Shown: positions 9,446 to 47,872, counted from the first letter of the stretch. The stretch: 64,000 nucleotides of DNA from Prorocentrum cordatum (GCA_963575745.1 CAUYUJ010000292.1:558001-622000), one strand, 5' to 3'. Made by a program: numbers and translations. Notes: generated by a model not told the origin, from the sequence alone.

Positions 9446-9550
9446 TAGTGCCAGGCTCCAGCTTCGCCTCCCGCATCTCGCTCAGCAGCGCCAGCGCCCG
9501 CTGCCACTGCTCGCCCTTCCCGCACGCGCTAATCCCAGCGCTGTAGCTGA
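9446..9550 (-). CDS. PPR block, 1 motif (exactly 105 nt)
   Basis: SYSAGISACGKGEQWQRALALLSEMREAKLEPGT; bounded by a Helitron-like 3' end (9551) and a TCTGTAG 5' end (9445). Expression unproven. Confidence 0.75.
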
Positions 9551-11869
9551 CTGGTGTGAAAACCCGTGGACGATCCACGGCTGCCAGGTCGAGGTGTCTG
9601 ACCCGAACACGCGTGTGTCGCCGACAAGGGTTGCTGCAGGCTCCGGGCTCCGGGACTGATGGCTGTCTTCGAATGTCTTGGGAGGGTCTGGGGCTATCTC
9701 GGAATGGTCCCTGGAAGGTTCTTGTGGCATCGAAAGCTTGCCGCAATCCAGTCTCGCTGCAGCCTCTTGCAGGAGGAGGCGGTGGAGGAGGGTAGCGATA
9801 CTGGAGATGGGGGGAGTGCAGGCTCCCAGAGGACGCCGAGGCAGACGACATACGAGGTCCCCCTTTGTCACCCCTGGAAGGGGGTCTTAGGAGGAAGAGA
9901 GAGCAGTCCAGAGAGAGGGAAGTGCAGGCTCGCAGGCGAGGAAGCCAGGGCGGGAAAGAGAGAGGAGGGTCCCCCTTTGTCACCCCCGATGGCTGGGAGG
10001 GGGCCCACCGCGAGCTCGGGTTTGCCGTGGGCAGCGAGAAGGGGGTGAGGCGCACGAGAGCGAGCATGAGGCCGAGGAGGAAGAGTGTGGCTCTGGAGCG
10101 CGGGCGGTCTCCGGATTCTGTTGGAGGCCTTTGGAGACAGCAAAGGGTGCGGGCGCTGCTGCAGTGGCTCCGAGGTGTCGACATGCCCCCCTCACCGCCC
10201 CGAATCGGCTGTGGGGACCCCAGAGTTGCTGGAGCGTGGATCAAGGGGAGCCAAGGAGCAGGAGGGGGAGGAGGAGGAGGAGGAGGAGGAGGAGGAGGAG
10301 GAGGAGGAGGAGGAGGAGGACGGAGGAGGACGGAGTAGGAGTAGGAGTAGGAGTAGGAGTAGGAGGAGGAGGAGGAGGAGGAGGAGGAGGAGGAGGAGGA
10401 GGACGGATGAGGAGTGGGAGAAGAGAGCCAAACGGGGAGAGGATGCTCGTTGGGTCTTCATATGGGTAAGTAGGTTTGTTGAAGGCTGCTGGGGAGGCAC
10501 AGGGGCGGAGAGCTCTCTTGGGAGCTCCGGCGGAATCATCACAATATCTTGGGAGGGTATGGGGTGTATCGAAATGGCTCAGGTCTTCGTTCGGGGTCCG
10601 CAGCTTTCTTTGGGTGCCGTGGCTGATGGCGCTCTGCTGAAAGCTCCTTGGCAAGTGTCGGAGTCTCTTGGGGAGACTCTGGTGCGTCGGAATGGTCCTG
10701 GGAAGGAGTGGTCCTGGTAAGGTTCTTGGCCCATTGGAAGCTGCGGGCGGCCCATCGTCTGGGCTTTCTTCGGACCCTATTGGAGGCCTCTTGGAGGTCT
10801 TTCCAGAGCCTCGGGGGCGTTTCTGAAGCCACGTTAGAGCGCTCTTGGGCCGTCGTGGGGGCCTGTAGGGACGTCCTAGGGCCATCTGGAGGGGACTGTT
10901 GATGTTGGGAGTCTTGGGACGTCTGGGGGCTATGGTGGATGGTTCGAGCCGTTTTAGGGGCCCGCTTTGGGCCCTCTGGCAGCTCTTGAGGCCTTCTTGA
11001 GCCACTTGGGGGATCTCCTGAGCTGTCTCCGGGGCTTCTCGAGCTGTCCTGGGGCGATGTTGGCGGTCTCAGGCAGGAGCGCCCAGAATCGAATCGATAA
11101 GTCGAATCGGCGATCCAAATGAATCGGATCGGTGGGAATCGGCAGCCGAGTAGGGAAAAGTCGAATCGGCAGACATCGGCAGGCTAGTATGCCTGAAATA
11201 GGAAATTGGAACCCAAATCGGAATCCCATGTCGAATCGAATCGGAATCGGAGGCCATCGAAATCGAATCGAATCGAATCGAAGGAATCGAAACGAGCCCT
11301 GCCTCAGGCCGTCTTGGAGCCCGCGTTGGGACCTGTTGGGGAGCTCCTGGTGCCTTCTTCGGCCTTTTCTTCGGGGCCACCAAGGGCTCTAATTATGAGG
11401 CTGTCTTGAGCTTCTCTTGGGCAATATTCGGGCCCTCTGGGGGGCCGTCTTGGGGTACTTGGCGGGGCCTCCTAGACCGTCTTGGGGCGATCTGGGATGG
11501 CCTTGGAGCAGTCTGGGGCCGTTCTTGGCCCGAAACGGCGAGAACCTGGAAAACCGAATTAACAACCAAAAACATTAATGATTTTGGCCTTGGTGGAATA
11601 TCATCGGGGTCCGATTCGACTGTTTTGGGATGCACCTGGCCCGTCGTCGGGCCGTATTGGGCTGTCACGGGGCTCCGTTCGGGTTCTTTTGGGCCGACCT
11701 CGCGCGCTCCGGAGCGTCTCAGAGCCGTCTGGAACTGACAGAGGCCGTCTGGGACTGCCTATGGGCTTTCTGGAGCCGTCGGAAAGCGCCGTGGCGCTTC
11801 GGGTGCCCGGGGGCAGCTTTATATTTTTCGCCCCTGTTGCACGCGCAACGCCCAGAATTGTAGTACAGA
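9551..11869 (-). mobile_element. Non-autonomous Helitron-like element A
   Basis: Minus strand: A|TCTGTACTAC... to CCGTGGA-TCG-TCCACGG hairpin, spacer, CCAG|T; no TSD; no Rep/helicase ORF. Confidence 0.75.
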
Positions 11870-11974
11870 TAACGTTGGGCGCCAGCTTCACCTCCCACAT
11901 CTCGCTCAACAGTGCGATCGCCCGCTGCCACTGCTCGCCCTTCTCGCACGCGCCGATCCCAGCGTTGTAGCTGA
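11870..11974 (-). CDS. PPR block, 1 motif
   Basis: SYNAGIGACEKGEQWQRAIALLSEMWEVKLAPNV. Confidence 0.75.
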
Positions 11975-11996
11975 TGCCCCTGCAATGTAGTAGAGA

Positions 11997-13359
11997 CTAG
12001 AACTGACCCGTGGACTACCGTCCACGAATGCCAGTCGTCAGCCTGCCCGTGCTGCTGCTCATTGTTTGGTGTGTTGTTTGCTTGATGATTCAGACGGCGT
12101 CCAGAGCAGCGCTAGCAGCATAAGCGGCAGCAGATCCAGGGGCACGGGCCGTAGCAACAACAGCAGCTCTTCTTCCTTTTCCTCCTCCTTCGCCCTTTCT
12201 TCCTCCTCGTACTTGGCTCGTCCTCGTCTTCCGCCACCTCCTCCTCCTCCTGGTCCTCCTCCTGGTCCTCCTCCTCCCCCTCCTCCTCCTCCTCCTCTTC
12301 CTCCTCCTCCTCCTCCTCCTCCTCCTCCTCCTCCTCCTCCTCCTCCTCCCCTCCTCCTCCTCCTCCCCTCCTCCTCCTCCTCCTCCTCCGCCTCCTCCTC
12401 CTCTTCCCAATCGTGCGGTTCCGACTCTGCGGGCAGAAGCACTTCTTACGGAGGACAGCGACGACGGGGAGGAAAAGGTCGCAGAGACAGCGTTCCAAGG
12501 GGGCCGCAGCGGGATCTGACAGCTATTGTGTGCACCCCCCGCAGCGCGGGAGGTGTTAGAAGAAGTGTGGGGTATGGCTTTGTTCCCACGCACCAGCACT
12601 TTCTGGGAGCCAAATCGGAGCAGTTCGGTGGGAGCTGCTGGAGGCCTTCGCGGAGCCAGTGGGGTTTCACTTGTTCCAGTAAGCCGGGGGCTTCTGGGAG
12701 CACGTCAGAGCCGTGTCGAGGGAGCTGCTGGAGGCTTTCTGGGAGCCCCTGGGGATTGTCCCGGAGGCCGTCTTGGAGCCTCTGGGGGATTCTTTTGGGG
12801 GCTCGCTGGCTGTGGGAAGGGCGGGAGTGGGGGGGAGCGCTCCAGAGTTGGCCCTGTTGGGCCTCCCTTGTGGCCGTCTTGGGAGGCTGTTCGGCCGTTT
12901 TGGGAGTCCCCGGAGCCGTCTTGAGGTTCCTCTGGCGAATGCCCCCGAAACCCGTCTTGGAGCCTCCCGGGGGTTTCTTGGAGGCTTGCTGCCGTGGGAG
13001 GGGCGGAAGGGAAGGGAACGCTCCAGAGGTGGCCCTGTTGGGCCTCCCTTGAGGCCGTCTTGGGAAGCTGTTCGGCCGTCTTGGGAGACCCCAGAGCCGT
13101 CTTGAGGGCCTCTGGGACCGTCGAACGATTTGGGAGGCTTCTCGGGATGGGTTGCTTGTCTTTTAGCCGCAGAAGCGATCGTAAGAGGAAAAGCATCAAA
13201 AACCTGGGAAAAGGGCCTTCCGGGGCACTCGCGAGACTCTCCTGGGCCACGACGGCGTCGATCCACGAGCGGGGCCGCCGAGGCGCCGCCGCCGCGGGCC
13301 CGCCGAATGTAAGCAACGTGTCTTTCTGGCACGCGCTGAGCTCGGTAGTGTAGTCTAGA
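11997..13359 (-). mobile_element. Non-autonomous Helitron-like element B (family shared with C, G, L)
   Basis: G|TCTAGACTAC... to CGTGGAC-GGTA-GTCCACG hairpin, 8-nt spacer, CTAG|T. Confidence 0.8.
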
Positions 13360-13464
13360 CGATGTTGGGCTCCACATTCACCTCCTGCATCTCGCTCAGC
13401 AGCGCCAGCGCCCACTGCCACCGCTTGCCCTTCGCGCACGCGCCGATCCCAGCGTTGTAGCTGA
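13360..13464 (-). CDS. PPR block, 1 chimeric motif
   Basis: SYNAGIGAC (as in the 11870 unit) fused to AKGKRWQWALALLSEMQEVNVEPNI (as in the 14853 unit). Confidence 0.75.
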
Positions 13465-13486
13465 TGCCCCTGCAATGTAGTAGAGA

Positions 13487-14852
13487 CTAGAACTGACCCG
13501 TGGACTACCGTCCACGAATGCCAGTCGTCAGTCTGCCCGTGCTGCTGCTCATTGTTTGGTGTGTTGTTTGCTTGATGATTCAGACGGCGTCCAGAGCAGC
13601 GCTAGCAGCATAAGCGGCAGCAGATCCAGGGGCACGGGCCGTAGCAACAACAGCAGCTCTTCTTCCTTTTCCTCCTCCTTCGCCCTTTCTTCCTCCTCGT
13701 ACTTGGCTCGTCCTCGTCTTCCGCCACCTCCTCCTCCTCCTGGTCCTCCTCCTGGTCCTCCTCCTCCCCCTCCTCCTCCTCCTCCTCTTCCTCCTCCTCC
13801 TCCTCCTCCTCCTCCTCCTCCTCCTCCTCCTCCTCCTCCCCTCCTCCTCCTCCTCCCCTCCTCCTCCTCCTCCTCCTCCTCCGCCTCCTCCTCCTCTTCC
13901 CAATCGTGCGGTTCCGACTCTGCGGGCAGAAGCACTTCTTACGGAGGACAGCGACGACGGGGAGGAAAAGGTCGCAGAGACAGCGTTCCAAGGGGGCCGC
14001 AGCGGGATCTGACAGCTATTGTGTGCACCCCCCGCAGCGCGGGAGGTGTTAGAAGAAGTGTGGGGTATGGCTTTGTTCCCACGCACCAGCACTTTCTGGG
14101 AGCCAAATCGGAGCTGTTCGGTGGGAGCTGCTGGAGGCCTTCGCGGAGCCAGTGGGGTTTCACTTGTTCCAGTAAGCCGGGGGCTTCTGGGAGCACGTCA
14201 GAGCCGTGTCGAGGGAGCTGCTGGAGGCTTTCTGGGAGCCCCTGGGGATTGTCCCGGAGGCCGTCTTGGAGCCTCTGGGGGATTCTTTTGGGGGCTCGCT
14301 GGCTGTGGGAAGGGCGGGAGTGGGGGGGAGCGCTCCAGAGTTGGCCCTGTTGGGCCTCCCTTGTGGCCGTCTTGGGAGGCTGTTCGGCCGTTTTGGGAGT
14401 CCCCGGAGCCGTCTTGAGGTTCCTCTGGCGAATGCCCCCGAAACCCGTCTTGGAGCCTCCCGGGGGTTTCTTGGAGGCTTGCTGCCGTGGGAGGGGCGGA
14501 AGGGAAGGGAACGCTCCAGAGGTGGCCCTGTTGGGCCTCCCTTGAGGCCGTCTTGGGAAGCTGTTCGGCCGTCTTGGGAGACCCCAGAGCCGTCTTGAGG
14601 GCCTCTGGGACCGTCGAACGATTTGGGAGGCTTCTCGGGATGGGTTGCTTGTCTTTTAGCCGCAGAAGCGATCGTAAGAGGAAAAGCATCAAAAACATGG
14701 GAAAAGGGCCTTCCGGGGCACTCGCGAGACTCTCCTGGGCCACGACGGCGTCGATCCACGAGCGGGGCCGCCGAGGCGCCGCCGCCGCGGGCCCGCCGAA
14801 TGTAAGCAACGTGTCTTTCTGGCACGCGCTGAGCTCGGTAGTGTAGTCTAGA
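13487..14852 (-). mobile_element. Non-autonomous Helitron-like element C (duplicate of B)
   Basis: Same termini and body as B. Confidence 0.8.
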
Positions 14853-15272
14853 CGATGTTGGGCTCCACATTCACCTCCTGCATCTCGCTCAGCAGCGCCA
14901 GCGCCCACTGCCACCGCTTGCCCTTCGCGCACGCGCTTATCCAAGCGCTGTAGCTGATGACGTCGGGCTCCAGCTTCGCCTCCCGCATCTCGCTCAACTG
15001 CGCCAGCGACCGCTGCCACTGCTCGCCCTTCTTGCTCGCGCTGACCCCAGCATTGTAGCTGATGACGTCGGGCTCCAGCTTCGCCTCCCGCATCTCGCTC
15101 ACCAGCGCCAGCGCCCGCCGCCACTGCTCGCCCTTCTCGCACGCGCTGATCCCAGCGCTGTAGCTAGTGACGTCGGGCTCCAGCTTCGCCTCCCGCATCT
15201 CGCTGACCAGCGCCAGCGCCCGCTGCCACTGATCGCCCTTCTCGCACGCGCTGATCCCAGCATTGTAGCTGA
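14853..15272 (-). CDS. PPR block, 4 tandem motifs (exactly 420 nt)
   Basis: Four in-frame 35-aa repeats of consensus SY[NS]AGISACEKGEQWQRALALLSEMREAKLEPDVI. Confidence 0.85.
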
Positions 15273-17114
15273 CTAGTGTGAACCCGTGGAGAATCCACGG
15301 CCCGCAGGTCCAGGCAGTGGTCCCGAACGCGCACGTGTCGGAAGCACTGGAAGCGTCAAAAGTAATGTGTTTTTGCTGATCGCGCGAGGCCTGGGCGCGA
15401 TTAGCAGAAACACATAGGTTTTCAGACGCAATCAGAGTAAGGGGGCCCGACCGATCTTACAGAGTCCCTGTGCGCGAGAAGTTCGATGTGGGGGGTGGAC
15501 GCGTGGGGGCCAGAGTTGGGCGCTACGTTGGAGGGCCTCGTTTGAGGGCCACGTTGGGGGGTCTCGTCAGGGTGTCATGGCTGGGGCCAACGTTCGCGGC
15601 CCTGCCAGGGGCCATGTTTGGGGGCCGCGTGCGGGGTTCAGGGGCACATGTGACGGTCGCGTTTGAGGGTGTGGGGTTCGGGGGCAGATGTGACGGTCAC
15701 GTTTGAGGGCAATGGTTGGGGGCTGTGTGTGTGTGTGTTGGGGCCACGTTTGGGGGCGCCTGGAGGCTACGCGTGGGGTTGACGTTCGGGGGCCACGCTT
15801 ACTGGGGCGGTAGGGGCGAACTTCGGAGGCTTTGTGTGGGGGGGCCGCCTTTGGGGGTCCCGTTTGGAGGCCGCGCATGGGGCCGACGTGTAAGGGGCCA
15901 CGTCCAGGGGCGATCTCAGAAAGCAGTCGGGGAGCCCCGGGGGCACTGACCTGGAAGCGTGAAGAGGAATGGGTTTTTGCTAATCGCGCTGGGACTGGGC
16001 GCGATCAGCAAACTCAAGGGTTTTCAGGCACCGCCAGAGTGAAGGGGCCACGTTAGCGGGCCCGCGCAGCCTGGTCCTGGGGCCATCTCGGGGTTCTCGG
16101 GCCGTCGAGATGGCCGTCTCGAGAGATCGAAGCCAGCAGAACCGAGAGAGCAGCGGTGAGGCCCCCGATACAGCCAAGGGTGCGGGTGCTGGTATACGTA
16201 GGGCCCCCGAACTGGCTGTAGTGGCCTGCGGGCAAAGTCGCTGCGGGCCTGGGTAATGGGTAAGAGATCTCGCGAATGTTGGTTGGGATCTCATGGCTGG
16301 CCTCTCGGGAGCCTCTGGGAGACAGTTTGGGGGTTTCTTGGTAGCAGTTTGGGGGCGTCTTGGGGCCTCTTGGGCCCTCTTTTGGGGCCTCTTGGGGGTC
16401 TTTTGGGGCGCTTGGCGGCCTCTGGGGGGCCTCTTGGAGCCTCTTTGGGGCGTCCTGGGGCCTCCTGGGGATGTCTTGGGAGCGTCCCGGCGTTTCTTTG
16501 GGGCGTCTTGGGGCTTCCTGGGGGCCTCTTGGGGTGGAGGCCTAATTTTTTCGGTTCCGAGTCCCTGTCTGGGGCCTCTCTTGGTGCCTTCTTGGGGCCC
16601 TCTTGGGCTGTCTTGGGCGACTCCTGGGCCGTCTTGGGGCCCTCTTGGGCCGTCTTGGGGCCGTTCTGAGGCCTCTTGGGCCGTCTCGGAACGGTCTGGG
16701 GGGCCTCTTGGGCGGTCTTGGAGCGTCGGAAAGCAGAAAACGCGAGAAGGCCAGACACATCGAAAACGAAGAAAATCAACGATTTTGGCTTCTGCGGCCC
16801 CTCTTGGAGGTACACTTCGAGCGCTCTAGGGGCCTCGTGGACGCGTCCCGGGCCGTCTTGAAGGCGTCCTGAAGCCATTTTGAGCGTCTCGGATCCACTC
16901 TTGGACCGTCTTGGGCCGTCTTCGGGACCTCCTGAGGCCGTCTTGGGGCGATCTGGGAATCCTGGATCAGTCCGCCAGCGGACCAAGGGCCTCCCGGGCC
17001 CGTCGGGAAGCGGCCCGGATGCTCTCCGAGCGGCCCGCGAGCTCTCTGGGCGGCCCGGGGCGCTGCCACTGCCTGACCTTCTCGCGCGCGCTTCGCCCGG
17101 AATTGTAGTACAGA
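15273..17114 (-). mobile_element. Non-autonomous Helitron-like element D
   Basis: A|TCTGTACTAC... to CCGTGGA-TTC-TCCACGG hairpin, GTTCACA, CTAG|T; 3' end resembles element A. Confidence 0.8.
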
Positions 17115-17335
17115 TGGCGGTGGGCTCCAGCTTCGCCTGGGCCGTCTCCCGCATCTCGCTCAACAGCGCCAGCGCCCGCTGCCACTGCTCGCTCTTCTCG
17201 CACGCGCTTATCCCAGCATTGTAGCTGATGGCGGTGGGCTCCAGCTTCGCCTCCCGCATCTCGCTGAAAAGCGCCAACGCCCGCTGCCACTGCTCGCCCT
17301 TCTCGCACGCGCTGATCCCAGCATTGTAGGAGAGA
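17115..17335 (-). CDS. PPR block, 2 motifs (one with a 3-aa TAQ insertion; first bases altered to TCTCTCCTAC)
   Basis: YNAGISACEKGEQWQRALALFSEMREAKLEPTAISYNAGISACEKSEQWQRALALLSEMRETAQAKLEPTA. Confidence 0.75.
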
Positions 17336-20300
17336 CTAGGGCTCACCCGTGGACTACGTCCACTTGCGAGGGGAGGGGGAGGAGGAGGATGAGGATGAGG
17401 AGGAGCAGGAGGAGGAGGAAGACCAGTGTAAACTCAAGAGTCATCAACGATGTTGGAATTAACCCTCCCTCCAAGCTCCCTCTTTATAGGCCCCTACAAC
17501 GGTTCATTTCCATTGAAGGAACTGCCTCGTTGGAAGACAACCGCTTGAAGATCCTAAAGCATGCCAAAACATTGTTCTCGGGATTTCAACGCCACGTATC
17601 AACTTGACTGCTGCGTCTTGACGATCTAAAATCGTGCCAGATCGCCGTTTGTGGGACTTCAACACCGCGAATCAACATAACTGTTGTACCCGCATAATCC
17701 TAAATCCTGCCCAAACACTACTTCTGGTATGTTGATCATGGGTATCCGTGAACCTCTGTGTTTGTACAACGAAATTGCGCGGCGCTAAGGCGAGAGCCAC
17801 AGTTTGAAAAGGAGCCCTCTCAATCCGCGAAGCTCTTGCAAATTGTGATAGTGAATGTGCGCGGCGCTACGGCGAGAACACATTTTGAAAACGGCCCGCC
17901 CTCAATCCGTGAAACTCTTCCAAATGTCTGCAACGAGTGTGCGCGGCGCTACGGCGAGAGCCACACTTTGATAACCCCTCAATCCGTGAAGCTCTTGCAA
18001 TTTGTTACATCGAGTGTCAGCGGCGCTAAGGCGAGAACCACATTTTGAAAATTACCCGCCATCAATCCGTGACACTCTTTCACACGTTTAAAAAGAATAT
18101 GCGCGGCGCTAAGGAGAGAACCACATTTTGAAAACGACCCGCCATCAATCCGTGAAACTGTTGTCACTGTTTAAGATTCAGGGTCGAAAAAGATGGGGAA
18201 GTCTCAGGCGAAACGCCCGGCACGCCCAAAAAAACTGGCTTCGGGGTGCGATACGGAGAAGTATCTACAAGGAGAAGGAATGGAGGAGGAGGAGGAGGAG
18301 GAGGAGGAGGAGGAGGAGGAGGGGGCGAGGATGGGGGGGAGGAGGAGGAGGAGGAGGAGGAGCAGGAGGAGGAGGAGGAGGAGGAGGAGGAGAAGGAGGA
18401 GGAGGAGGAGGAAGAGGAGGACGAGGAGGAGGAGGACGAGGAGGAGGAGAAGGAGGAGGAAGAGGAGGAGGAGGAGAAGGAGGAGGAGGATGGATGGATG
18501 CGACTGCATCGAAGCAGCCCAGACAGGCATCCATCCGACCCTGGTCTACCCCGCGGGCAAGCCAGAGAGGCGGAAACCACCCCCGCGGGGACAAAAGCGG
18601 GACATCCCAGCCTCGTCGTCGTCCTCCTCCTCCTCCTCCTCGTCGTCGCCGTCGTCGTCCACATCCTGTCCCCTCAAAGAAATCGCGCGCCTGTGGCGGA
18701 GGAGAGTGGCGACGGGGAAGAGAAGGAGGCTCAAAATTGTTGACGCTTCGCGTATCCCCACCAGCCCATCCAGAAACGATGCCCAGCTTTTACTGGGGTG
18801 TAGCCCACAGGTGCAGAGAAACGATGCCCAGGGGAGTTGAGGTGATAAGGGAAGTCGGGGAGCATGCAGAATAACAAAGGGCGGGGGAAGCTGTCACGTA
18901 CCCCAAGAGGGGGAGGATGGAGAAGGAATCCTCGTCGGAGGGGGAGGGGGAGGAGGAGGAGGAGGAGGAGGAGGAGGAGGAGGAGGAGGAGGAGGAGAAT
19001 GAGGAGGAGGATGTGGAGTAGGGAGAGGACGAGGAGGACGAGAAGGTGGAGAAGGAGCAGAGGGAGGAGAAGGAGGAGAAGGAGGAGAAGGAGGAGGAAG
19101 AGGGGGATGAACAATTGAAGAGGACGGCGAACCGAAGAGCCAGAAGCGTCTTAAATGCATTTCGGAGATCTTCTTGAGGCTTCTTGGGGGTCTCTTGGGA
19201 GCCTCTTGGAGGCCTCTTGGGCGCCTCTTGGGGCCGTTGGGCGCCTCTTGGGGCGCTCTTGGGGCGCTCTTGGGGGCTGTAGGGGCGCTCTTGGGGCCAT
19301 CTTGGAGGAGATCGATCAACGAAGGGGGGGTCCCTAATTAGCCTCCCCCCTCAGGAGCTCCAAACATCGCCTCTTGGGGCGCTCTTGGGGCGCTCTTGGA
19401 GCGCTCTTGGGCGCTCTTGGGGCCGTCTTGGGGCTCTCTTGGGCCTCTTGTGGGGCCCTCTTGGGCCATCTTGGAGCCATCTTGAGGCCTTGGATGGCCA
19501 TCGGAAGCGAAACGGGGAGAAAGCAAACAACATTGATTTCCCTAAGGTTTTGGGACGATTTTGGCCTCTTCGGGGCCTCCTTGGGGAGCTCTTTGGCCAC
19601 TTGGAGCCGTCTTGGGGCCGTCTTTGGGCCTCTTGGAACCATCTTAGGAGCCATCTCGAGCGATCTTGCGCTATCTTGAGCCTTCTTGGAGCTCATCTTG
19701 GGCTCTCCCACGCGCTCTTGAAGCCATCTTGGGGCCAAAAGAGCCGTCCGACCGCTCGGGGAACCCTCCGTCCAGGTCCAGGGGAGGGGGTAGGGGGAGG
19801 GGTAAACCCTTCCCCAAGGGGGAAGAGGGAGGGGTGGAAGAGGATCTGTTCTAGACCACCTACGCCCAGAGGGCTGGTGGGATTATCGGAGAGAACCGCA
19901 CCCCACACCCCTTGGGACACGCTCGGCGCGGGAGGCGTCGCAGAAACAGCGTCCCCGAGACGCCGCGGCTGCATCGCACAGCTCTTTTCTGCAACCCCTC
20001 CAGTGCGAGAGGTGTCCCAAAAGGTGTGGGGTATGGCCTGTTCGCATCGCAGCAGTTCGGTGGGAGCGGAGCTGCGGAGCTGCTCGAGGCCTTCGAGGAG
20101 CTCGTGGGGCATCATTGGTTCTAATGAGCTGGGGCGTTCTGGAAGCATATTAGAGCCGTTTCGACGGAGCTGCAGGAGGCTCTCCGGAAGCCTCGGGGGA
20201 GCGTCCGGGAGGCCGTCTGGGGGCATCAAGGGGGGCCCCTTGGGCGGGAGGGAGGGGGGGGAGGGGGGCGCGCTCCCGAATGGGCCCTGGGGGCCGTCTT

Positions 20301-21404
20301 GAGAGGCTGTTCGGCCGTCTTGGAACCTCCCGCAACCAATTTGAGGGTCTTGGGCCGTCATAAGGACTCTTGGGGGCTCCCTGGAAGCCCTCCGGAGGAA
20401 TTGGGAAGGGTTGGGATTTTTGTTGGCCGGAGAAGCGATCGTAAAAGGGCGTGCGGAAAACCCAACAAAACGCCATAATTGTTCGTCCTCGTTGCCCTCT
20501 CGGAGGCAACAGGGGAGCCTTGCTGCTACTGGATCCCCCTCCTCCTCCTCCTCCTCCTCCTCCTCCTCCTCCTCATGCTCCTTCGCCTCCGCCTCCGCCT
20601 CCTCCTCCTCCTCTTCCTCATGCTCCTGCTCCTCCTCCTCCTCCTCCTCCTCCTCCTCCTCCTTCTCCCCCTCCTCCTTGTTTCCTCGATTCTTCATCCT
20701 CTCGGTCTTGGATCGTGAATCGTGGATCCTACGACGACGCTCCCCAGAAGACGAGCATGGAAGGTCTTCTGAGTGTCCAAAACGGCTGTTTGGGACCTGC
20801 GATCTGCCTCTCGCCTCTCGTCCGCCCCTCCTCTCTCGGAGGCAATATCGAAGCTACTGAGAGCCTCTTGGGGGCCGTTTGGGGGCCTCTTAGGGCTTCT
20901 TTTCGGCCTCGCATGGGCCTCTTGGGTGCCGTTTGGGCCGCCTTGGGGCCGTCTTGGGCAACCTTGGGCGCCTCTGGGGCTTTCTTGGGGCCGCCTTGGC
21001 CGGCTCTTGGGGCCGTGTTTGGTGCCTCTTAGGCTGTCTTGGGCGCTTCCGGGGCCGTCCTGGGGCTGCCTGGGGCCGTCTTGGGGCCCTCATAGGGGCA
21101 TCTTGGGGCTTGTATGGCCATCGTGGACGCGTCGGAGACGGAAAGCACAGTAACGCCAGACATACACGTTTTCCGAAAGAAATGGTATGAATTTTGCCTC
21201 GTGGAGCTCTCCTGGGTTCCTCCTGGGCCGTCTTCGGAGCCTCCTGGCCTGCCTTGGGTGCCTCTGGGGTTGTCTTGGGGCTCCCTGGGAATGCTCCAAG
21301 GCCGTCCTCGCGCCCCCTCGAGCCTCTCAGAACCGTCCTCAGGCCGTCTGAGGCCATGTAGGGACCCCTCCTCGCACGCACCCGTCCCAATATTGTAAGA
21401 GAGA
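17336..21404 (-). mobile_element. Composite non-autonomous Helitron-like element E
   Basis: A|TCTCTCTTAC... to GTGGAC-GTA-GTCCAC hairpin, GGGTGAGCC, CTAG|T; contains a B-family internal segment (~19890-20480) and nested repeats. Confidence 0.7.
17745..18170. repeat. ~82-bp tandem repeat, ~5 copies
   Basis: GCGCGGCGCTA[AC]GGCGAGARCCACA.TTTGA....CCC.TCAATCCGTGAA.CTCTT recurs. Confidence 0.85.
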
Positions 21405-21614
21405 TGGCGTTTGGCGACACCTTTGTCTCCCGCATCTCTCTCAGCAGCGCCAGCGCCCGCTGCCACTGTTCGCCCTTCTCGCACGCGCTGATCCCAACGC
21501 TGTAGCTGATGACGTTGGGCGCCACTTTTGTCTCCCGCATCTCGCTCAGCAGTGCCAGCGCCCGCTGCCACTGCCCGCCCTTCTCGCACGCGCTGATCCC
21601 AGAGTTATAACTGA
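21405..21614 (-). CDS. PPR block, 2 motifs (exactly 210 nt)
   Basis: SYNSGISACEKGGQWQRALALLSEMRETKVAPNVISYSVGISACEKGEQWQRALALLREMRETKVSPNA. Confidence 0.8.
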
Positions 21615-22279
21615 CTATGGCTAACCCGTGGTCTACGTCCACTTGCAGGGTGAAGCGTGTGGGGATGTCATTACAGCTTGGGGCTCGACCCTCGCATTCG
21701 GCGCATGCCTCTGCGTAGTGTTGCTTGCTGCGGTTGCATGCTGTTGGTAATGATTGCCGCTGCTGCGTGTCGTTGTTGCTTGTTGCTGAAAGGTGCTGAT
21801 GATGGCCACGTCTGCTTGGTGCTTGCTGCTGACCGCTACCTGCTGCTGCTGCTGATGCTGATGCTGTTTGCTGTTGTTGTGCGCTGACACTATTGTTGCC
21901 TGCTTCGTGTTTCGTGCTGGTGCCTTCGGCTACACAGGGGGTGTTTCGGGCCGCCACAGGATGATCTTGAGCCACCTTGAGGCTGTGTTGCGACCAAGGT
22001 TGGAGATTGAGAAGCAACAGTGAGCCTTCTGTTCCAACGAGGTTGCATGCGGGTGTGGCCGCCCGGGGAGGTCGGAGAATGCGAGCGGATTGCGTGGGCT
22101 GGGGAGAAGATCGAGGGCACTGTGGAACATGCCCCCAAATGGCCAGCCTGTCTGGAGCACTCTCAGGAAGAACTTCCCAGGAGTCGCCCATTCAGACCAG
22201 AGAGTTTGCAAAGGGGGGAGAGAATTATCATGTCGAAGGGCCCAACCATACGCTGTTGTGAGTACCGCGTTGTGGCAAT

Positions 22280-23801: not shown

Positions 23802-24507
<706 letters not shown>

Positions 24508-24697
24508 TCACGTGTCTTGCGTCAGGGTAGCTGACGTGGAGCTTTCGCTCCTGCTGCTCGTGGTCGCTGCTTCGCCGACATCGACGGCGGCGCGGTTCAA
24601 GCCTTGGGGGGGCCTGGCGTGCCGTGCCGGCAGAAACGGTCACGACGCCGCAGGGAAACGGAGTTCTTCGAGCGTCGCTCAGAGCCCTGAATCATCA

Positions 24698-31275: not shown

Positions 31276-31284
31276 TAGTATAGA

Positions 31285-35275: not shown

Positions 35276-35380
35276 TGACATCGGGCTCCACCTTCGCCTC
35301 CTGCATTTCGCTCAGCAGTGCCAGCGCCGGCTGCCACTGCTCGCCCCTTTCGCACGCGCTGATCCCAGCATTGTAGATGA
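35276..35380 (-). CDS. PPR block, 1 motif (exactly 105 nt)
   Basis: IYNAGISACERGEQWQPALALLSEMQEAKVEPDV. Confidence 0.75.
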
Positions 35381-38300
35381 CTAGGGCTGACCCGTGGACT
35401 CTGTCCACGTCATCTGGCCGAAAATATTCTCGGGGCGGCGGCGGGGATGCTGCCGAAAGGATATCGACATGGCGGTCAGCCACTCGGCTGCGAGGGGGCC
35501 GCTGGGGGCCCTCTTGGGCTTTTGTCGATGCTCCGAGCCTGGTGTCTTGCTCTCCCCCCAGCGCTGCCGCCTCCGCTGCTGCCCTCATCGTCGCCGTCCT
35601 AGCCAGGTCGTCGTCGTCTTCATTCCCGCTCTGTCATCGTCCGCGCGATATTCGCTTGCGTCCTTAGTCCTCCTCCCCTCCTCTTCCCCCCTCGTCCTCC
35701 CCAGTATACCTGCTCATCCTGCTCCTACTATTCCTTCTCCCCTTCCTTCTCCTCTTCCCCACAGGCCTGCAGACAAGACGCCCTCTCGAAGTCCAGACGA
35801 CGATGACGACGACAACAACAACGACGACGACGACGATGCGACGGAGCCGACGAACACGATCACAACGACGACGACGCCAAGTCCGTGTGACAGCGCGGAT
35901 CCGGAGCAGCAACGTCATGCACCGTGAAGATGGAGCGGGGTGGCCCCGGACAATTGCTGAACATTTCTACCCAAGGGGGCGGTCTGTTCACAAGTTATCC
36001 AGGTCCTCCTCCTCCTCCTCTCCTCCTCCTCCTCCTCCTCCTCTCCTCCTCTCCTCCTCCTCCTCCTCCTCCTCCTCCTCCTCCTCCTCCTCCTCCTCTA
36101 CTCATTCTCCTCCTCCTCCTCCTCCTCCTCCTCCTGTTCCTGGGTCCTTCATCTGCTCGATCTCCGATCGCCAATCGTGGACGCCAAAACGACGCCCCCC
36201 AGAAGGCGAGCATCCAAGGCCCTCGGAGCGTCCAGATCGGGTCTTCTGGGCCTGCGATCGCGTCTCGCCTCTCGTCCGCCCCCCTCTCACGGAGGCAAAT
36301 TCGAAACCACTTAGGGCGTCATGGGGGCCGGCTGCGTGGGGCCTGCGATACGGCTCTCGCCTGTCGTCCGCCCCCCCCTCTTGGAAGCAACTTTGAAGCC
36401 ACTGAGGGCCTCTTGGGGGCCGCTTGGGGGACTGACTCTTCCTCTTGGGGGTTCTTTTCGGTTTCCTGGCAGCCTCTAGGGGCCCTCTTGGGCCGTCTTG
36501 TGTGCCTTCTGGGTCGTCTTGGGGCCGTCTGGGGCCGTCTTTGGCTGTCTCTGGCGCCTCTTGGGCCGTCTTGGGGCCGTTCTGGGCCGTCTTGGGCGGC
36601 TCTTGGGGCTGTCTTGGGTGCCTCTTGGGTCGGCTTGGGACCCTCTTGGACCGTCCTGACGCCGTCTTGGAACGTCTTGGGGCCCTCACGGGGGTATCTG
36701 GGCCCGCAATCCGCAACGGTGCCTGCGGCACGTTGAGACGTGGAAGACTGCCAAGGGCTGCCTGGCAGGGTTTCTGTAGTCTTATGAAGGACCACCCACC
36801 CGCTCTGGTGACACCCAGCCGACTGCACCACCCCTACTCCTGGGGGGTCCCCGGGCGGCCATGGCGCCTCCCTGGGGCTCCCCAATGCTTCCATTACGGC
36901 CCAGGAGGACCCCAAAACGGTCCAAGAGGGCCCCGAGTTGCCGAACGATCGGTCGAAGACGCCCAAGACGGCCTCAAGATGGCCAAGAGGCCTCCAAGAC
37001 GCCCCGAGAGGCCTCCAAGAGGCCTTCCGAGAGGGCCCAAACAGGCACAAATCGTTGATTGTCCTTAGGTCTTTGAAAGTTTTGGCGTTCTGGCCTTTTT
37101 GGCTTTCGGACTCTCCAAGGCGGACCAATAGGCCCCCAAGACCACCCCAAAACGGCCCAAGAGGCCTCCAAGACGGCCCAAGAGCGTCCCAAGGCGGCCT
37201 CAAAACGGCCCCCAAAGGGGCCCGAGAGAGGAACCGAGCACCTCCGAGCCTGCCTTCTGGCCCAAGAGGCCCCCAGGAGTCCTCAAGCTGCGCCCAAGAG
37301 GCCCCCAGAGGCCCCGAAACTGCCCCCAAGATGCCTCGAACCTGCCATCAAGAGGTCCCCGAGCGGCCTCCCACGAGATCCCAGCGGAGATCGAATATGC
37401 CTCACACCCACAGCCCAGACACGGCGGCAGGACTTGCCGCAGGGAGCTGATTACATACACTTGAAACATCTTCGAGTAGCACCCTGACATGCCTGAACTT
37501 GCAACGTTCTAGGGCCGCTCGCGGGAACCTCCTGGCCCGTCCTGGGTGTCCCCCTCGCCTATACACAAACAACCCCGTTGGCGGCCGCTTTCGGGGGTCC
37601 ATGTCGGCCCATCAGGCCACCGTGCCTGGATTGAGTGTCAGAGTCCTCAGGCATGCTTCTTGGGGCCACTTAGGAGCGCTCTCGACGCTCTCAAGGGCCT
37701 CATGGGGACAGTTTAGGGGCCTCGTGGGAGCCTCGCGGGGGCCTCGTGGATTATCGTTGGGGCCTCTCGGAGGCCTCTTGGTGCCTCCTGAATGCACCTT
37801 CGGGCCGAGGGCTCGAAATGCCCGTTCTGGTTCCCCGTCTGGGCCTCTTGGGCAGCCCGTCTGGGCTCTTGGAGCGGTCTTGCGGGCCTCTTGGGCAGCC
37901 TCAGAGGCGTGGTCGGCTGTCTACGGGCCCTCTGGGGCCGCTTCGGGGCGCTCTCGGACGCCTCTTGGGCCGTGCCGTGGCGATCCTGGGACCCTCTCGC
38001 GCCGTCCTGGAGCGTCGGGAAGCCGAAACAGGCAACATCCTTCGCGCACCCCAGGGACAGCAGTGCGTGCGTTGCCTCTGGGGGTGTCCTCCTGGGAAGG
38101 ACTCTTGGCTGACCATCGCTCGGACGTCCATTTCCTGTGCTTTTTTCGGATTCGTGCGTGTTTTTTTGGGGGGGGGCGAAATGATCAAGCATGCTCCTCG
38201 ATGGTCCTCGCCGATGGAAAATGCACACGTCCGAGCGATGCCAAGCCAAGGAACAGTAGTGCGTGCGCTGCCTCTGGGGGGGTCCTCCTGGGAAGGACTC

Positions 38301-38539
38301 TCGGAGGCCTCTTGGGGGGCGTCCTGGCTGGCAGTGAGCCGCCTCCACGCCCGCTCCCCGGGCACCACGCGAGCCCGCTCCGGGCATCGGCGGGTGCCGC
38401 CAAAGGGGACCCTGCGGGGCCGCCGCGGAGCGTCCCGCGGGGCTCCGCGGAGAGGGCGCGGGGCGCCCCGGGCGGGGGACCTCCGAGCCCCGGGGGCCCG
38501 CCTCGCGCGCAGAGGCTCTCCCGCACTGCCTGGAGGGCT
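35381..38539 (-). mobile_element. Helitron-like element I; 3' end clear, 5' end not recognisable
   Basis: CGTGGAC-AGA-GTCCACG, GGTCAGCC, CTAG|T at 35381-35409; the upstream PPR breaks at the same register (GACGCCA|) but is not followed by TC. Confidence 0.5.
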
Positions 38540-38644
38540 GGCGTCGGGCTCCAGCTGCGCCTGCCGCACCTCGCCCAGCAGCGCCAGGGCCCGCTGCCAC
38601 TGCCCGCCCTTCCCGCACGCACCGATCCCGGCGTTGTAGCTGAC
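38540..38644 (-). CDS. PPR block, 1 motif
   Basis: VSYNAGIGACGKGGQWQRALALLGEVRQAQLEPDA. Confidence 0.7.
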
Positions 38645-38659: not shown

Positions 38660-40442
38660 CTAGGGCTGACTCGTGGACTCCGTCCGGGGCATCTTTCTGG
38701 CACGACTCTCGGAGGAACGGCGGAGACTTTGACGAACATCTTTGAGCACGGCTGCAGCCGGGGCGGCGGCAGCGAGACCGCGCCCTCGCGTCCGAGCTCT
38801 CGCAACGCTCCCGCAGCTGGGCCCCGGCGCGCGGCTCCTTCGCCTCCCTCCTGGTGAAGGCAGTGTTGAAGTCCCTCGGGGATGTGCGTCAAACCCAGAC
38901 CCCCGACGTAATGATTTTTTCATTACGTCGACCCCCAGAGGTCTGGTCCCTTTCCCCATGACCGGCTTTGCATCCTGAGTCGTTTTTTGACGCTTCCGAG
39001 GCCCGGTGAGAGCCCCTGGAGGCCGAAAAGTAGGAAAAACATCCCGTCATGATTTTTTCATTACTCGAGGGGGTCTGGGAAGTCGAAGCCCCTCTCAGGC
39101 GTCTCAGGAGCGCCCAGGGACGGGCTCGGGCGGCCCTCGGGGAAAGCCAGCGGGAGCGCCTAGCAGGCTCGCAGGGATCTCCAGGGAGGGTCCAAGAGAG
39201 CTTCGAGAGGCAGATTTAATGCGACCTTAACAAAGACCGCTGTTGGGTCGGACGTGCTCCGCTGCGTTGGGGAGACCGTTTCGTTGGAGTTCTGGTGATG
39301 GCGAGGCTCTCCTGGGCGTGTCAGGAGCGCATGGTCCCCTCTCTTGGAAGCAGTTTCGAAGCCTCTTTGGGCCTCTTTGGGGGGTTGAGGGTCTCTCAGG
39401 TCCTCTTGTGGGCCTCTTCGGGACCTTGTTGGGCCCTCTTGGGCCGTCTGGTCTCCTCTTGGGCCGTCTTGGGGACACGTTCAGCGCTCCGTACGTCATC
39501 CTCACTGTGTCCATCACCTGGGCGGCCTCTCGGAAACACGCCCACGGAATCCAGGGCCACCCAAATATCTCGCCGCGCCGCGCCGTGCGAGCCCGATTAG
39601 CTTCGCGCTCTCGGGCCCGCACCCACGGAGGAAAGCAAAGCTCCCTATGCGGCCACTGATGGCCGGCGCTTCCTTCTCCTTGGGAACCGTTTAGGGGCCT
39701 CTCGCGGTTTCGTTCCGCCCTCCTGGGGGACTTGGGGCCCCCTTGGACCGTCTTGCGGCATCCTTGGGGCCTCTTGGGGCCCTGTTGGGCCGTCTTGGGT
39801 GCCCCTTGGGCCGTCTTGGGGCATTCTTGGACGCCTCCGGGGCCGGCTTGGTGCCGTCTTGGGGCCGTCTTGGGCCGTCTTTGGCCGCTCTTGGGGCTGC
39901 CTTGGGTGACTCTTGGGCCGTCGTGGGCGCTCAGGAGCGGTTCTGGGGTCGTCTTGGGCCGTCCTGGGGCCGTCTTGGGCCGTCTCGGGGCCCGGGGCCC
40001 TCCTGGGGCGCTCCTGAGGCGTCATGGGACGATCTTTGGGGCGTGAATTTCCCTCTTGGATGCTTTGTAAACGAAAAAGACGGGAATTATGAACATGTAC
40101 GTTTTCCCTAGGAGTGGGGACGATTTTTGCTTGTGCGGGCTCTTTCGGGACTCTTCTTGGAGCCCACTTGGAGCGTTTTGGAAGCCTCTTGGGCCGTCTG
40201 GGGGCTATCTTGGGCGTCTGCGAACGCTCTTGGACCGTCTCAGAGGCCCTCTTGGACCGTCTTGTGCCGCTCTTGGGGGCCCTGGGGTCGTCTCGGAGCG
40301 CCCTTGGGCCTCCTGGAAGCACGCCGGGGCCTGCTGGGGTGCTAAGGCTCGCAGGAGCCCGCAGGGGCCGCCGGGGCGCCGGTACACCTAGCCCCGACTC
40401 CCGCCCCTATCGCACGCGCGTGCGCCTGCAATGTAGTAGAGA
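38660..40442 (-). mobile_element. Non-autonomous Helitron-like element J
   Basis: A|TCTCTACTACATTGCAGG... to GGAC-GGA-GTCC-ACGAGTCAGCC-CTAG. Confidence 0.7.
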
Positions 40443-40689
40443 TGACGTCGGGCTCCAGCTTCGCCTCCCACATCTCACTCAGCACTGACAGCGCGTGTTG
40501 CCACTGTCCAATTTTTCCGCATGCGCTGACAATCGCAACGTAGTGGCTTGGGACAAGTTGCACACCTAATCGAATTCCTTCCCGGAGCAACCGCAATGCT
40601 GCGCTCCATTGTTTTGTCCGACCGCACTTCTTGATCGACACTTCGAAGGAAACAGCGCCTTCTCGAGACCCTCGACCGATGTCCAGCAT
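40443..40689 (-). CDS. N-terminal head of the PPR gene (ATG + 2 divergent PPR motifs)
   Basis: MLDIGRGSREGAVSFEVSIKKCGRTKQWSAALRLLREGIRLGVQLVPSHYVAIVSACGKIGQWQHALSVLSEMWEAKLEPDV; ATG about 50 nt downstream of a spliced-leader relic. Confidence 0.8.
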
Positions 40690-40740: not shown

Positions 40741-40762
40741 CTTGAGCCAAAATGTCTACGGC
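40741..40762 (-). other. Genomic relic of the dinoflagellate spliced leader (DinoSL)
   Basis: GCCGTAGACATTTTGGCTCAAG versus DCCGTAGCCATTTTGGCTCAAG: 21/22; a second degenerate relic GCATTTTTGGGCTCATG at ~40710-40726. Confidence 0.9.
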
Positions 40763-46220: not shown

Positions 46221-46361
46221 TCCAATTCCTCCTCTCCTTCCTTATCTTCCTCTTCCTCCTCTTCCTCCTCCTCTGTTGCGTTCCTTCTATTCTTCCTCCT
46301 CCCCCTCCCTCTCCTGATTCTCCTGCGGCATCCCCCAAGTGTTTCCCTACACGTCTCCAGG

Positions 46362-46534
46362 GTAGCTGATGACGTCGGGCTCCCATTGCTCGCCCTTCTC
46401 GCACGCGCTGATTCCAGTGCTGTAGCTGATGACGTCAGGCGCCAACTTTACCTCCCGCATCTCGCTCAACAGCGCCAGCGCCCGCTGCCACTGCTCGCCT
46501 GTATGGCGCGCGCTGATCCCAGCACTGTAGCTGA
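46362..46534 (-). pseudogene. PPR block of the second locus: 1 full motif + 1 internally deleted motif
   Basis: SYSAGISARHTGEQWQRALALLSEMREVKLAPDVISYSTGISACEKGEQW-EPDVISY. Confidence 0.75.
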
Positions 46535-47625
46535 CTAGGGCTGACCTGTGGACTGCCGTCCACGAGTGCCAGGTGTCAGAGCGCCCTTGCTGCTGCGCAT
46601 TCCTTTGCGCTGTTTGCTGGATGATTCTGAAGGCGTCCAGAGCAGCGCTAGCAGTATCAGCGGTAGCAAGTCCAGGGCCGTGGGCAGTAGCAACAGCAGC
46701 AGCTCCACCTCCTCCTCCTCCTCCTGCTCCTCCTCCTTCTCCTCCTCCGCCTCCTCCTCCTCCTCGTGGTCGTGCTTCGCCCGTCCTCGTCCTCGGGTTC
46801 GTACTGCTCCTCCTCGTCCTCCTCGTCCTCCTCCTCCGTCCTCTTCCCCTCTGGGAACTCGTGCGGCTCCAACTCCGCGGGCAGGAGCGCCTGTGGCGGA
46901 GGAGAGCGACGACGGGGAAGAGGAGGAGAAGGCCCAAGACGAAGGACAACACCGCATCCCCACACCTCTTGGGACACGCTCGGCGCGGGAGGGGTCGCAG
47001 AAACAGCGTTCCCGGGTGTCCGCGGCTGCATCGGACAGCTATTCTCTGCACCCCCTCCCGCGCGAGAGGCGTCCCACGAGATGTGGGGTGTGGCCTTCCT
47101 CCATTCATACAATGCTTCTGGGAGCCTTCTTGGAGCCGTTTCGAGGGAGCTGCTGGAGGCTTTCCAGGAGCCGCTGGGAGCGTCCTGGAGGCCGTCTTGT
47201 AGCCTCGGGGTCATGGTGGCTTCTTGGGGGCTTGCTGGCAGCGGGGGGGGGCGCAGGGGGCGCGGGGGGCGCTCCAGAGTTGGCCCTGTTGGGCCTCCCT
47301 TGGGGCCGTCGCGGGGGGCTGCGCGGCCACCTGAGAAGTTTGGGAGATCCCTGGGCGCCCTCCGGAAGAATGGGGCAGCTTGGGGATGCCTCTCGGGAAG
47401 GGTTGGGCGTCATGTGGCCAGAGATGCGATCGCAAGAGTAAGTATTTATGGCGCAGACCTCAATCAGATCAGTAATTTTACGTCCTTGCGGAGGGGCGCT
47501 CGGGGAGCCTTCCGGGGCACTCGCGGGGCTCTCCTGGGCCAAGGCGGCGTCGCCACACGAGCGGGGCCGCCGGGCGAAGCCAATGTGTCCTTCTGGCACG
47601 CGCTGAGCCCCTGCGGCAGTATAGA
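46535..47625 (-). mobile_element. Non-autonomous Helitron-like element L (B family)
   Basis: A|TCTATACTGC... to GTGGAC-GGCA-GTCCAC, AGGTCAGCC, CTAG|T. Confidence 0.8.
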
Positions 47626-47872
47626 TGGCATCGGGCTCCAGCTTCGCCTCCCACCTCGCCCGGAACACCGACAGTGCGTGTTGCCATTGCCCGCCTTTCC
47701 TGCATGCGCCGGCGGTCGCAACGCAGCGGCCTGGGAAGAGTTGTGCGCCGCATCGAGTCACTTCGCAGAGCAACTGCCGTGCTGCGCGCCATTGCTTTGT
47801 CCGACCACGCCTCTAGATTGACACTTCGAGAGAAGCATGGCCTTCTTGAGGCCCTCGTCCCATGTCTAGCAT
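47626..47872 (-). pseudogene. Degenerate paralogue of the PPR head with in-frame TAG
   Basis: MLDMGRGPQEGHASLEVSI*RRGRTKQWRAARQLL...ACRKGGQWQHALSVFRARWEAKLEPDA; same 247-nt length as 40443-40689. Confidence 0.85.

Follow-up and report, generated by a model that had tools for sequence, protein, structure and literature searches.

Within a 64,000-nucleotide stretch of Prorocentrum cordatum DNA (GCA_963575745.1 CAUYUJ010000292.1:558001-622000; hereafter the window), arrays of pentatricopeptide repeat (PPR) coding units are interrupted, at a fixed position of the repeat, by spacers that carry a hairpin shortly before a terminal AG. This observation of fixed-position interruptions with hairpin ends is confirmed and lies far beyond chance. 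The occurrence of such an end signature at a fixed site suggests, without proving it, that introns are generated at a single spot of a coding repeat by a mobile element, and our tentative reading, in which we place slightly less than even confidence, is that the spacers represent a non-autonomous family with Helitron-type ends that is confined to one PPR position, acts as introns and spreads by re-insertion and recombination. The analysis draws on the window, two environmental contigs (L002 and L004), public protein models and published papers. The window itself is G+C-rich (~60%) and laden with repeats; the spacers were named E1 to E12, giving 12 spacer starts, 11 of which have a listed 3' end, while E12 is represented by a very short start.

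An nhmmer profile of the 105-nt unit located 22 complete or partial PPR units; they lie in blocks, exclusively on the minus strand, and correspond to tandem 35-residue PPR motifs with a 105-nt period at the DNA level. Their identity as PPR sequence, proposed in an earlier note on this DNA, holds: translated, the four-unit block at 14851-15270 (minus strand) gives 140 residues that Pfam recognises as a PPR array (PPR_2, E=1e-23; PPR_2, PPR_3, PPR and PPR_1 above the cut-off) and that are 100% identical to part of P0017, a public model of an unnamed Prorocentrum cordatum protein. The reading frames have been kept, with no stops and no frameshifts in 15 full units, and the ratio of nonsynonymous to synonymous substitution rates (dN/dS) of these units is 0.47, compared with 0.58 and 1.05 in two wrong frames; this lends mild support to coding constraint, and much of the divergence may predate the present copies. 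The upstream unit ends at model position 104-105 for all 11 spacers, and the downstream unit begins at position 1 for 10 of them, the exception being 17329 (position 5); the interruption point lies between the first and the second base of the Ile/Val codon joining PPR units (GTC A|TC AGC). Removal of the spacer from TC to AG gives an exact 105-nt period in 7/11 cases, which fits a precise insertion without duplication; in the other four, 6-22 additional bases stand behind the AG (16 nt at 38660, 22 nt at both 13487 and 11997, and TCTCTC replacing TCAG at 17336). A target-site duplication was looked for at the spacers and none was seen. The flanking base on the 5' side is A in eight, G in two and T in one of the 11, and on the 3' side it is T in 10, with A for E2. 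The earlier note had claimed one fixed break nucleotide without target-site duplication; the upstream unit end and the missing duplication bear this out, whereas the period is exact in only part of the spacers and 17336 is off.

The spacers open with TCTNTACTA-like sequence directly after the unit end. Of the strict motif TCTNTACT[AG] there are eight copies on the minus strand and none on the plus strand; six follow a PPR unit end (47625, 40442, 32801, 31284, 17114 and 11869) and two stand directly after CTAG (13486 and 11996), the latter absent from the earlier note's list. The TCT-like starts that were listed there have all been recovered, in the strict form at the six positions just given, as variants at 14852 and 13359 (TCTAGACTA), 21404 (TCTCTCTTA) and 9445 (TCTGTAGAT), and in degenerate form at 35275 (E4, TTTACC); the spacer starting at 38539 (E3) has no motif. 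Ten of the 12 spacers begin with TCT, a count to be read with the caveat that the PPR unit also starts with TC. In 8/12 spacers TCTNTACTAC is followed by an in-register degenerate PPR unit (model positions ~5 to 40-52, nhmmer), and the sole change at the junction of this stub is the presence of two extra bases (TC-AG-C to TC-TNTA-C). Derived changes in the stub are common to copies at different places (E1, E9/E10, E4 and the fragment at the end of E2), indicating that the stub belongs to the repeated element and not to the local array. The stub was also compared with the C-terminal tail of the family (AYERSS...GIGLSRF), and this candidate was rejected, as the 11 spacer starts scored 22-40 in local alignment, within the distribution of the controls (mean 26, 95th percentile 36).

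At the other end, all 11 of the 3' ends reported earlier are present on the minus strand with hairpin, spacing and AG. Each consists of an arm GTGGA(C), a 3-4-nt loop and an arm (G)TCCAC, forming a stem of 5-7 bp, followed by 9-10 bases and then by CTAG in eight cases (11997, 13487, 15273, 17336, 33012, 35381, 38660 and 46535), CCAG in two (9551 and 31390) or ATAG in one (21615). The pattern GTCCAC-n9-CTAG, with one mismatch or fewer, gave 10 matches against 3.5 expected, a number reached by none of 100 shuffles; one of the matches (59186) is due to chance and has no PPR sequence beside it. When folded as single-stranded DNA, the hairpin is the minimum-energy structure in 7 of the 10 ends folded, those at 21615, 31390 and 38660 being decayed. 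A hairpin scan allowing up to two substitutions returned eight true copies, all adjoining PPR starts, and three chance-like matches elsewhere, with no additional true copy elsewhere in the window. The 3' end of the spacers has no PPR homology at E up to 10 (nhmmer). In the E1/E9 subfamily (11997-12036, minus strand, with its twin at 13487), the bases flanking the hairpin also pair, ACTGGC with GGTCAG, extending the stem to ~14 bp and up to 6 nt from the end.

The junction recurs outside the window, in both of the true metagenome matches. The 19-nt 3' end matched four times: two matches are due to chance and lack the hairpin, and the two with a hairpin continue either with PPR position 1 (L002) or with the 5' stub (L004), at 69-83% identity to the window copies. 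Both contigs have the same build as the window spacers. A scan of viral contigs gave no match.

Comparison of the spacers with one another places E1, E5, E9 and E10 in one subfamily of ~77% identity, E1 being 76-80% identical to the other three, while E1 and E2 match only at the last 27 nt and in a common short-repeat region. E8 and E11 are alike at both ends, and E6, E7 and L002 are alike at their 3' ends; the internal degenerate short-repeat region is common to all spacers at only ~60-65% identity. The subfamilies have little more than the ends and this internal region in common, in agreement with the several families that had been proposed. The E9/E10 pair (14852-13487 and 13359-11997) is a product of unequal crossing-over and not of transposition, the intervening chimeric unit (13361..13464) marking the crossover that duplicated unit and spacer. 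The 11 cases are accordingly not 11 independent insertions, since the 99.6% identity and tandem order of E9 and E10 go back to a crossover within PPR units. Head-to-tail remnants were found as well: an 18/18-nt copy of the E2 5' end stands behind the CTAG of both E9 and E10, shorter fragments of the 5' motif stand behind the CTAG of E2 and E7, and in L004 a full 5' stub lies directly behind CTAG. These remnants fit insertion before a resident copy, whose start resembles the target, and have no obvious role in an intron. Clustering of the units that flank spacers of the same subfamily yielded a star-like identity matrix, with all units nearest the consensus-like units 15167 and 15272, and no signal either way.

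The genomic context is that of retrogenes. The N-terminal exon of the longer array, termed gene B (MLDIGRGSREGAVSFEV..., 40689-40444), is 100% identical to the start of the public model P0157, and 52 bases upstream of its start codon there is a copy of the dinoflagellate spliced leader with one mismatch in 21, a match that none of 100 shuffles gave. Gene B possesses this full relic leader together with a worn inner one, and the neighbouring gene A only the worn one; the stacked relic leaders thus differ in number between the neighbouring copies (40690-40761 and 47834-47900, minus strand). The alignment of the two genes begins at the worn leader, with no homology upstream of the leader, and this homology from the leader onward implies that genes A and B are separate copies derived from complementary DNA (cDNA). 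At least 26 further models, spread over 18 or more contigs, share the first exon of gene B, and several paralogous models translate stacked leader relics before the same start (AILAQA, FWLK, SHFGS). In the mRNA recycling reportedly described by Slamovits and Keeling in 2008, such genes descend from spliced, leader-capped mRNA; under that model, the relic leaders mean that the ancestors should have been intronless. Retrogene-type PPR loci of intronless ancestry are thereby implied by the sequence, on the assumption that the copied RNA was spliced. Exon 1 is nevertheless followed by a spacer at the same nucleotide in gene A and in gene B, and these two spacers differ in subfamily, E1 of gene A being closest to E5, E9 and E10 deep in gene B and not to E2.

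In public gene models, P0017 and P0157 make introns of all four of the spacers that they span (E8, E2, E3 and E4). P0017 removes E8 (17114-15273) as T|GT...CTAG|TC, by which TCT is left and an extra Phe is encoded ('AIFSYNAG'), and in P0157 E2 is removed as GAC|GT...GAAG|GTC, and E3, which leaves no seam, as A|GC...CTAG|TC. The annotation of P. cordatum limited donors to GT, GC and GA and combined transcript-based with ab initio predictions, according to PMC10666404. The earlier note would have taken ordinary introns with other boundaries as a refutation; the models come close to this, containing GT/GC-AG introns with borders 0-4 nt (5') and 0-16 nt (3') away from those of the note, but they are models and not cDNAs. 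Among 76 family models from the same species, 30 of 182 junctions contain five residues, ~22 of them of the form xxIFS, which is the footprint of T|GT...AG|TC, and PPR text is in the wrong frame in 44/76; the other 101 proteins from the same searches (other dinoflagellates and transcript assemblies) have neither five-residue junctions nor frame-shifted text. These counts indicate that the spacers occur family-wide, at the same nucleotide elsewhere, and trouble gene predictors. The offsets of usable donors differ between copies (0, +1, +4 and +13). Protein searches with the window translations returned only genome-annotation models and no transcript-derived protein 100% identical to the window.

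Logan contigs from four runs were aligned with the window at an 88% threshold, at which the signal is family-wide (tens of thousands of PPR contigs) and not locus-specific. At this threshold, RNA-type runs covered PPR bins at a depth of 2,400-53,000 and spacer bins mostly at <300, and DNA-type runs reached depths of 57,000 over some spacer regions; the low RNA-run cover of the spacers was not used as evidence for splicing at the locus. Among the contig joints listed, none falls at a spacer border, and those listed link non-homologous points of different units and reflect paralogue alignment. Two regions, 16378-16811 and 17246-19849, which are parts of E8 and E7, had depths of 12,000-57,000 in two DNA-type runs, pointing to very high-copy repeats and possibly to nested elements.

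The Helitron signature that the earlier note had recognised stands in the 5' TC, the subterminal palindrome, the mostly CTAG ends, the mostly A|T flanks and the missing duplication, whereas 3/11 ends break the CT. Transposition, its rolling-circle nature, the recognition of a target and actual splicing at the locus are what we infer, and the steps can be envisaged as follows: (i) the elements would form one non-autonomous family of a basic size of ~1.1-1.4 kb, each starting with TCTNTACTAC and a PPR-like stub, continuing through the internal region of degenerate short repeats and a variable stretch, and closing with a hairpin ~9 nt before (C)TAG, and their ends would be rolling-circle (Helitron-type) ends; (ii) the host would be a family of PPR genes that multiplied when mRNA capped with the spliced leader was retroposed; (iii) an inserted element would be read as an intron, with the terminal AG as acceptor and, as donor, a GT, GC or GA that lies at the 5' end or close to it, the T|GT of TCTGTAC giving one extra Phe codon, A|GC no seam and ACAG|GC four codons; (iv) copies would be gained either by new insertion, including insertion before the target-like 5' end of a resident copy, or by unequal crossing-over between flanking PPR units. 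A more specific version, which we regard as doubtful, is that the family became specialised for one nucleotide owing to the likeness of the PPR unit start to the element's left end, and that it re-invades retrogenes whenever these have been copied through mRNA, brings splice sites with it and aids the growth of the arrays.

Several observations weigh against the interpretation as Helitron-type insertions. All three variant 3' ends keep the AG and alter the CT that is invariant in Helitrons, as is predicted for a splice acceptor and not for a CTRR terminus, and the hairpin stems are conserved without covariation. The 5' boundary is not a clean break of homology, the left border being set only by the 2-nt insertion. 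No Rep-helicase or PIF1 domain was found in the 155 open frames of the window of at least 170 residues, and no empty site was seen in the window and the metagenome loci. The true 3' ends adjoin PPR sequence in 13/13 cases (11 in the window and two in the metagenome) and in none unrelated DNA, and E9/E10 demonstrates that duplication alone can multiply spacers. The argument from intronless ancestors fails if unspliced RNA was retroposed. Regarding the intron function, P0157 removes E4 as GAT|GT...CTAG|TC, which shifts the frame, after which the model ends; many family models end in this way, so that clean splicing is not general, and the models may derive from ab initio prediction. A G[TCA]...AG option with an in-frame donor is present within 26 nt for 11/11 spacers, which is about what is expected by chance.

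Part of this counter-evidence is what would be seen if the spacers were ordinary introns of one ancestral PPR gene that were multiplied only by DNA duplication or unequal crossing-over, with ends related to splicing and a coincidental likeness to Helitrons. This explanation, which we consider unlikely, accommodates the E9/E10 tandem pair from a crossover, the one architecture of all spacers including the internal short-repeat region, the AG kept in the variant 3' ends, the splicing of spacers in gene models and the PPR-derived 5' stub, and the units flanking spacers of the same subfamily are 76-79% identical, similar to the spacers themselves (~77%). On the other hand, it conflicts with several lines of evidence: (i) the relic leaders and the A/B homology starting at the leader argue for cDNA-derived, and hence intronless, copies; (ii) E1, in the first intron of gene A, is nearest to E5 and E9, the fifth and ninth spacers in gene B, and not to E2 at the homologous place; (iii) TCTNTACTAC is conserved despite differing donors, so that donor function does not explain it; (iv) 5'-end remnants stand directly behind acceptors, where they have no role in an intron; (v) we know of no acceptor feature that corresponds to a hairpin 9 nt before the end.

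It is also conceivable, but improbable, as in the second option of the earlier note, that a Helitron-type element once landed in a PPR array and that failures of rolling-circle termination then copied the element along with downstream units, which would make the PPR units passengers and the arrays concatemers. The spacers follow genuine first exons with a 5' untranslated region and relic leader and no element end before them, neither the size of the blocks nor the flanking units change together with the spacer subfamily, and the PPR units remain open, all of which speak against such read-through, in spite of the head-to-tail CTAG|TC... junctions, the decayed or truncated appearance of gene A and many family models, and the precedent of Helraiser, for which read-through beyond the 3' hairpin has been documented along with circle junctions (PMC4778049). 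Very improbable is an exact non-canonical removal from TC to AG, like that of the odd-ended Amoebophrya introns, with the GT/GC-AG borders of the models as predictor artefacts: deletion from TC to AG does restore the period in 7/11, 44/76 models have frame-shifted text as if predictors had missed the true borders, the pipeline allowed only GT, GC and GA donors (PMC10666404), more than 60% of introns are non-canonical in two Amoebophrya strains (PMC11453091) and RNA-type runs are at least 100-fold deeper on PPR bins than on spacer bins, as a family-wide and not locus-specific signal, but no border joint is present among the joints listed, the spacers lack terminal inverted repeats and 3-5-nt direct repeats like those of Amoebophrya, and canonical options are present for every spacer.

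The coordinates of the two genes, their PPR units and the spacers are collected below.

Features of the PPR loci in the window (all on the minus strand, from high to low coordinates)
Feature	Coordinates	Remarks
Gene A first exon, decayed	47627..47833	In-frame stop; homology to gene B begins at its worn relic leader
Spacer E1 (TCTATACTG...CTAG)	46535..47625	Subfamily of E5, E9, E10
Gene A, one and a half PPR units	46379..46534	Followed by an internal deletion
Relic spliced leader upstream of gene B	40741..40761	1/21 mismatch; second worn relic ~30 nt downstream
Gene B first exon: N-terminal region and first PPR unit, ending GAC GTC A	40444..40689	100% identical to P0157 residues 1-82
Spacer E2 (TCTCTACTAC...CTAG)	38660..40442	Followed by 16-nt filler 38644-38659
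Last ~60 nt of E2		E1/E9-type stub fragment fused to hairpin
PPR unit	38540..38643	nhmmer E=1e-24
Spacer E3	35381..38539	No 5' motif; 3' hairpin and CTAG intact
PPR unit	35277..35380	nhmmer
Spacer E4	33012..35276	5' motif degenerate; 5' hairpin arm decayed
Two PPR units	32803..33011	nhmmer
Spacer E5 (TCTATACTAC...CCAG)	31390..32801	Subfamily of E1, E9, E10; 74-80% to E9/E10 over most of its length
PPR unit	31285..31389	nhmmer
Spacer E6 (TCTATACTAC...ATAG), 9.7 kb	21615..31284	Assembly gap 24048-24147; several satellites
Two PPR units	21406..21614	nhmmer
Spacer E7 (TCTCTCTTAC...CTAG)	17336..21404	Holds high-copy repeats (DNA-run depth)
Two PPR units, second with 9-nt in-frame insertion	17116..17329	nhmmer
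Spacer E8 (TCTGTACTAC...CTAG)	15273..17114	Spliced in P0017
Four PPR units	14854..15272	Pfam PPR_2 E=1e-23; nhmmer
Spacer E9 (TCTAGACTAC...CTAG)	13487..14852	99.6% identical to E10
22-nt remnant behind CTAG	13465..13486	First 18 nt are the E2 5' end; twin remnant 11975-11996
Chimeric PPR unit	13361..13464	5' part like unit at 11974, 3' part like unit at 14957
Spacer E10	11997..13359	Tandem twin of E9
PPR unit	11871..11974	nhmmer
Spacer E11 (TCTGTACTAC...CCAG)	9551..11869	Both ends resemble E8 ends
PPR unit	9449..9550	nhmmer
Spacer E12 start (TCTGTAGATAC...) to CGTGGAC hairpin arm	9395..9445	Retrotransposon sequence next

Beyond the start of E12, an open frame of 1661 residues occupies 4025-9010 (minus strand, extending up to ~9394). 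It contains a YADD motif and hints of zinc fingers, its only RVT_1 match is below the threshold (E=0.031), and it is probably a divergent retrotransposon of the type without long terminal repeats. It begins right after the CGTGGAC arm, 50 nt past the start of E12 (9445-9395), and a second half of the hairpin beyond the retrotransposon (4025-9394) was not found in 1-4300. The model P0017 (1082 residues; window 4198-17329, minus strand) is a chimera of PPR exons, retrotransposon pieces and further PPR text, the last of which lies beyond the window start and is partly in the wrong frame. Between genes A and B there is a 1.9-kb satellite of ~10-nt units (TGCAAAGCAA-like) at 40943-42803. In spacer E6, (CACG)n and (CACGCACA)n arrays at 23804-24504 flank the 100-N gap, and ~940 nt of (GTA)n-like microsatellite at 29295-30237 give rise to spurious open frames of 438-514 residues with no Pfam match. 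Twelve copies of a 64-nt tandem repeat lie at 1605-2372, and tandem repeats of 82-113 nt at 17744-18174, 22285-22868 and 25680-26100.

If the reading of the spacers as Helitron-type insertions is true, one-nucleotide targeting in a protein-coding repeat would represent a new degree of target specificity for such elements and a new route to same-phase introns, with a bearing on coinciding intron positions in repeated domains; Helitrons are regarded as requiring no more than an AT dinucleotide, and introners as inserting at nearly any place within genes. On the more specific, doubtful version, the family would keep making, and the host would keep tolerating, phase-identical introns, and the growth of the PPR arrays would be helped by recombination between inserted copies. 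Being copied through spliced mRNA and yet filled with spacers, the gene family offers a natural clock for intron gain, and the elements distort the annotation of a large gene family of a bloom-forming alga, at least 44/76 models containing frame-shifted text. Helitrons and introners are already known, and the confinement to one nucleotide of a coding repeat would be the new aspect.

Among known systems, the HUH elements of the IS200/IS605 and IS91 type have no inverted repeats, make no duplication, carry subterminal hairpins and use a specific short target that is read with the element end. The resemblance lies only in this logic of target choice, these elements being prokaryotic and no transposase having been seen in the window. 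With the relic leaders of recycled mRNAs the locus shares the stacked leader copies upstream of the start codon, in counts that differ between paralogues, whereas the retrogenes described here are full of spacers that retroposition should have erased. The introners of dinoflagellates (Polarella, Symbiodiniaceae, Amoebophrya and P. cordatum) are transposon-made introns of dinoflagellate genes, as the spacers may be (PMC10666404 and PMC11453091), and the introns of P. cordatum are themselves enriched in introner elements, according to PMC10666404. That paper defines dinoflagellate introner elements by inverted repeats of 8-20 nt and direct repeats of 3-5 nt, located no more than 30 nt from either end of the intron; the spacers, in contrast, have no terminal inverted or 3-5-nt direct repeats and only a 2-nt TC overlap.

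The earlier note knew of no description of such an arrangement. In the accessible parts of the literature on Helitrons together with dinoflagellate introns, pentatricopeptide repeats, introners of the species and site-specific targets, the arrangement is indeed not described, and the word Helitron is absent from one recent review of dinoflagellate genomics; Helitron-derived introners, however, have been described in fungi (PMC12130899, in the parts available). These make up ~1% of the classified introner families there, the fungal examples being Suillus subalutaceus family 5 and Nemania serpens family 1 (available part of PMC12130899 supplement file 7), and the term 'Prorocentrum' is absent from the available main text and from 12/13 supplement files searched. 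The fungal elements are like the spacers in being multi-copy and non-autonomous, in coinciding with introns, which for the spacers are those of public models, in carrying or co-opting splice sites, in the lack of a duplication and in AT-enriched insertion. They are scattered over many genes, whereas the spacers are confined to one phase of one repeat type; in the spacers, moreover, the donor differs between copies, leaving 0, 1 or 4 extra codons, and the host is a dinoflagellate.

The closest likeness in the ends is to canonical Helitrons (Helibat/Helraiser, HelibatN), which share with the spacers the 5' TC, a 3' CTAG (in 8/11 spacers), a palindrome ~10 nt before the end, a mostly A|T insertion point, the lack of a duplication and of terminal inverted repeats, subfamilies that share mainly their ends, and head-to-tail junctions. 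For Helibat/Helraiser, PMC4778049 describes ends of the TC/CTAG type, a palindrome that lies 11 nt before the terminus, insertion at A|T without duplication, head-to-tail circle joints and read-through. Differences from the canonical elements are the resemblance of the spacer 5' end to its target, variant ends that break CT and not RR, and the lack of a Rep-helicase in the 155 window frames. For Helraiser an AT dinucleotide is sufficient, with a preference for AT-rich DNA around it (PMC4778049), whereas the spacers are found at one nucleotide of a G+C-rich coding repeat in 13/13 copies.

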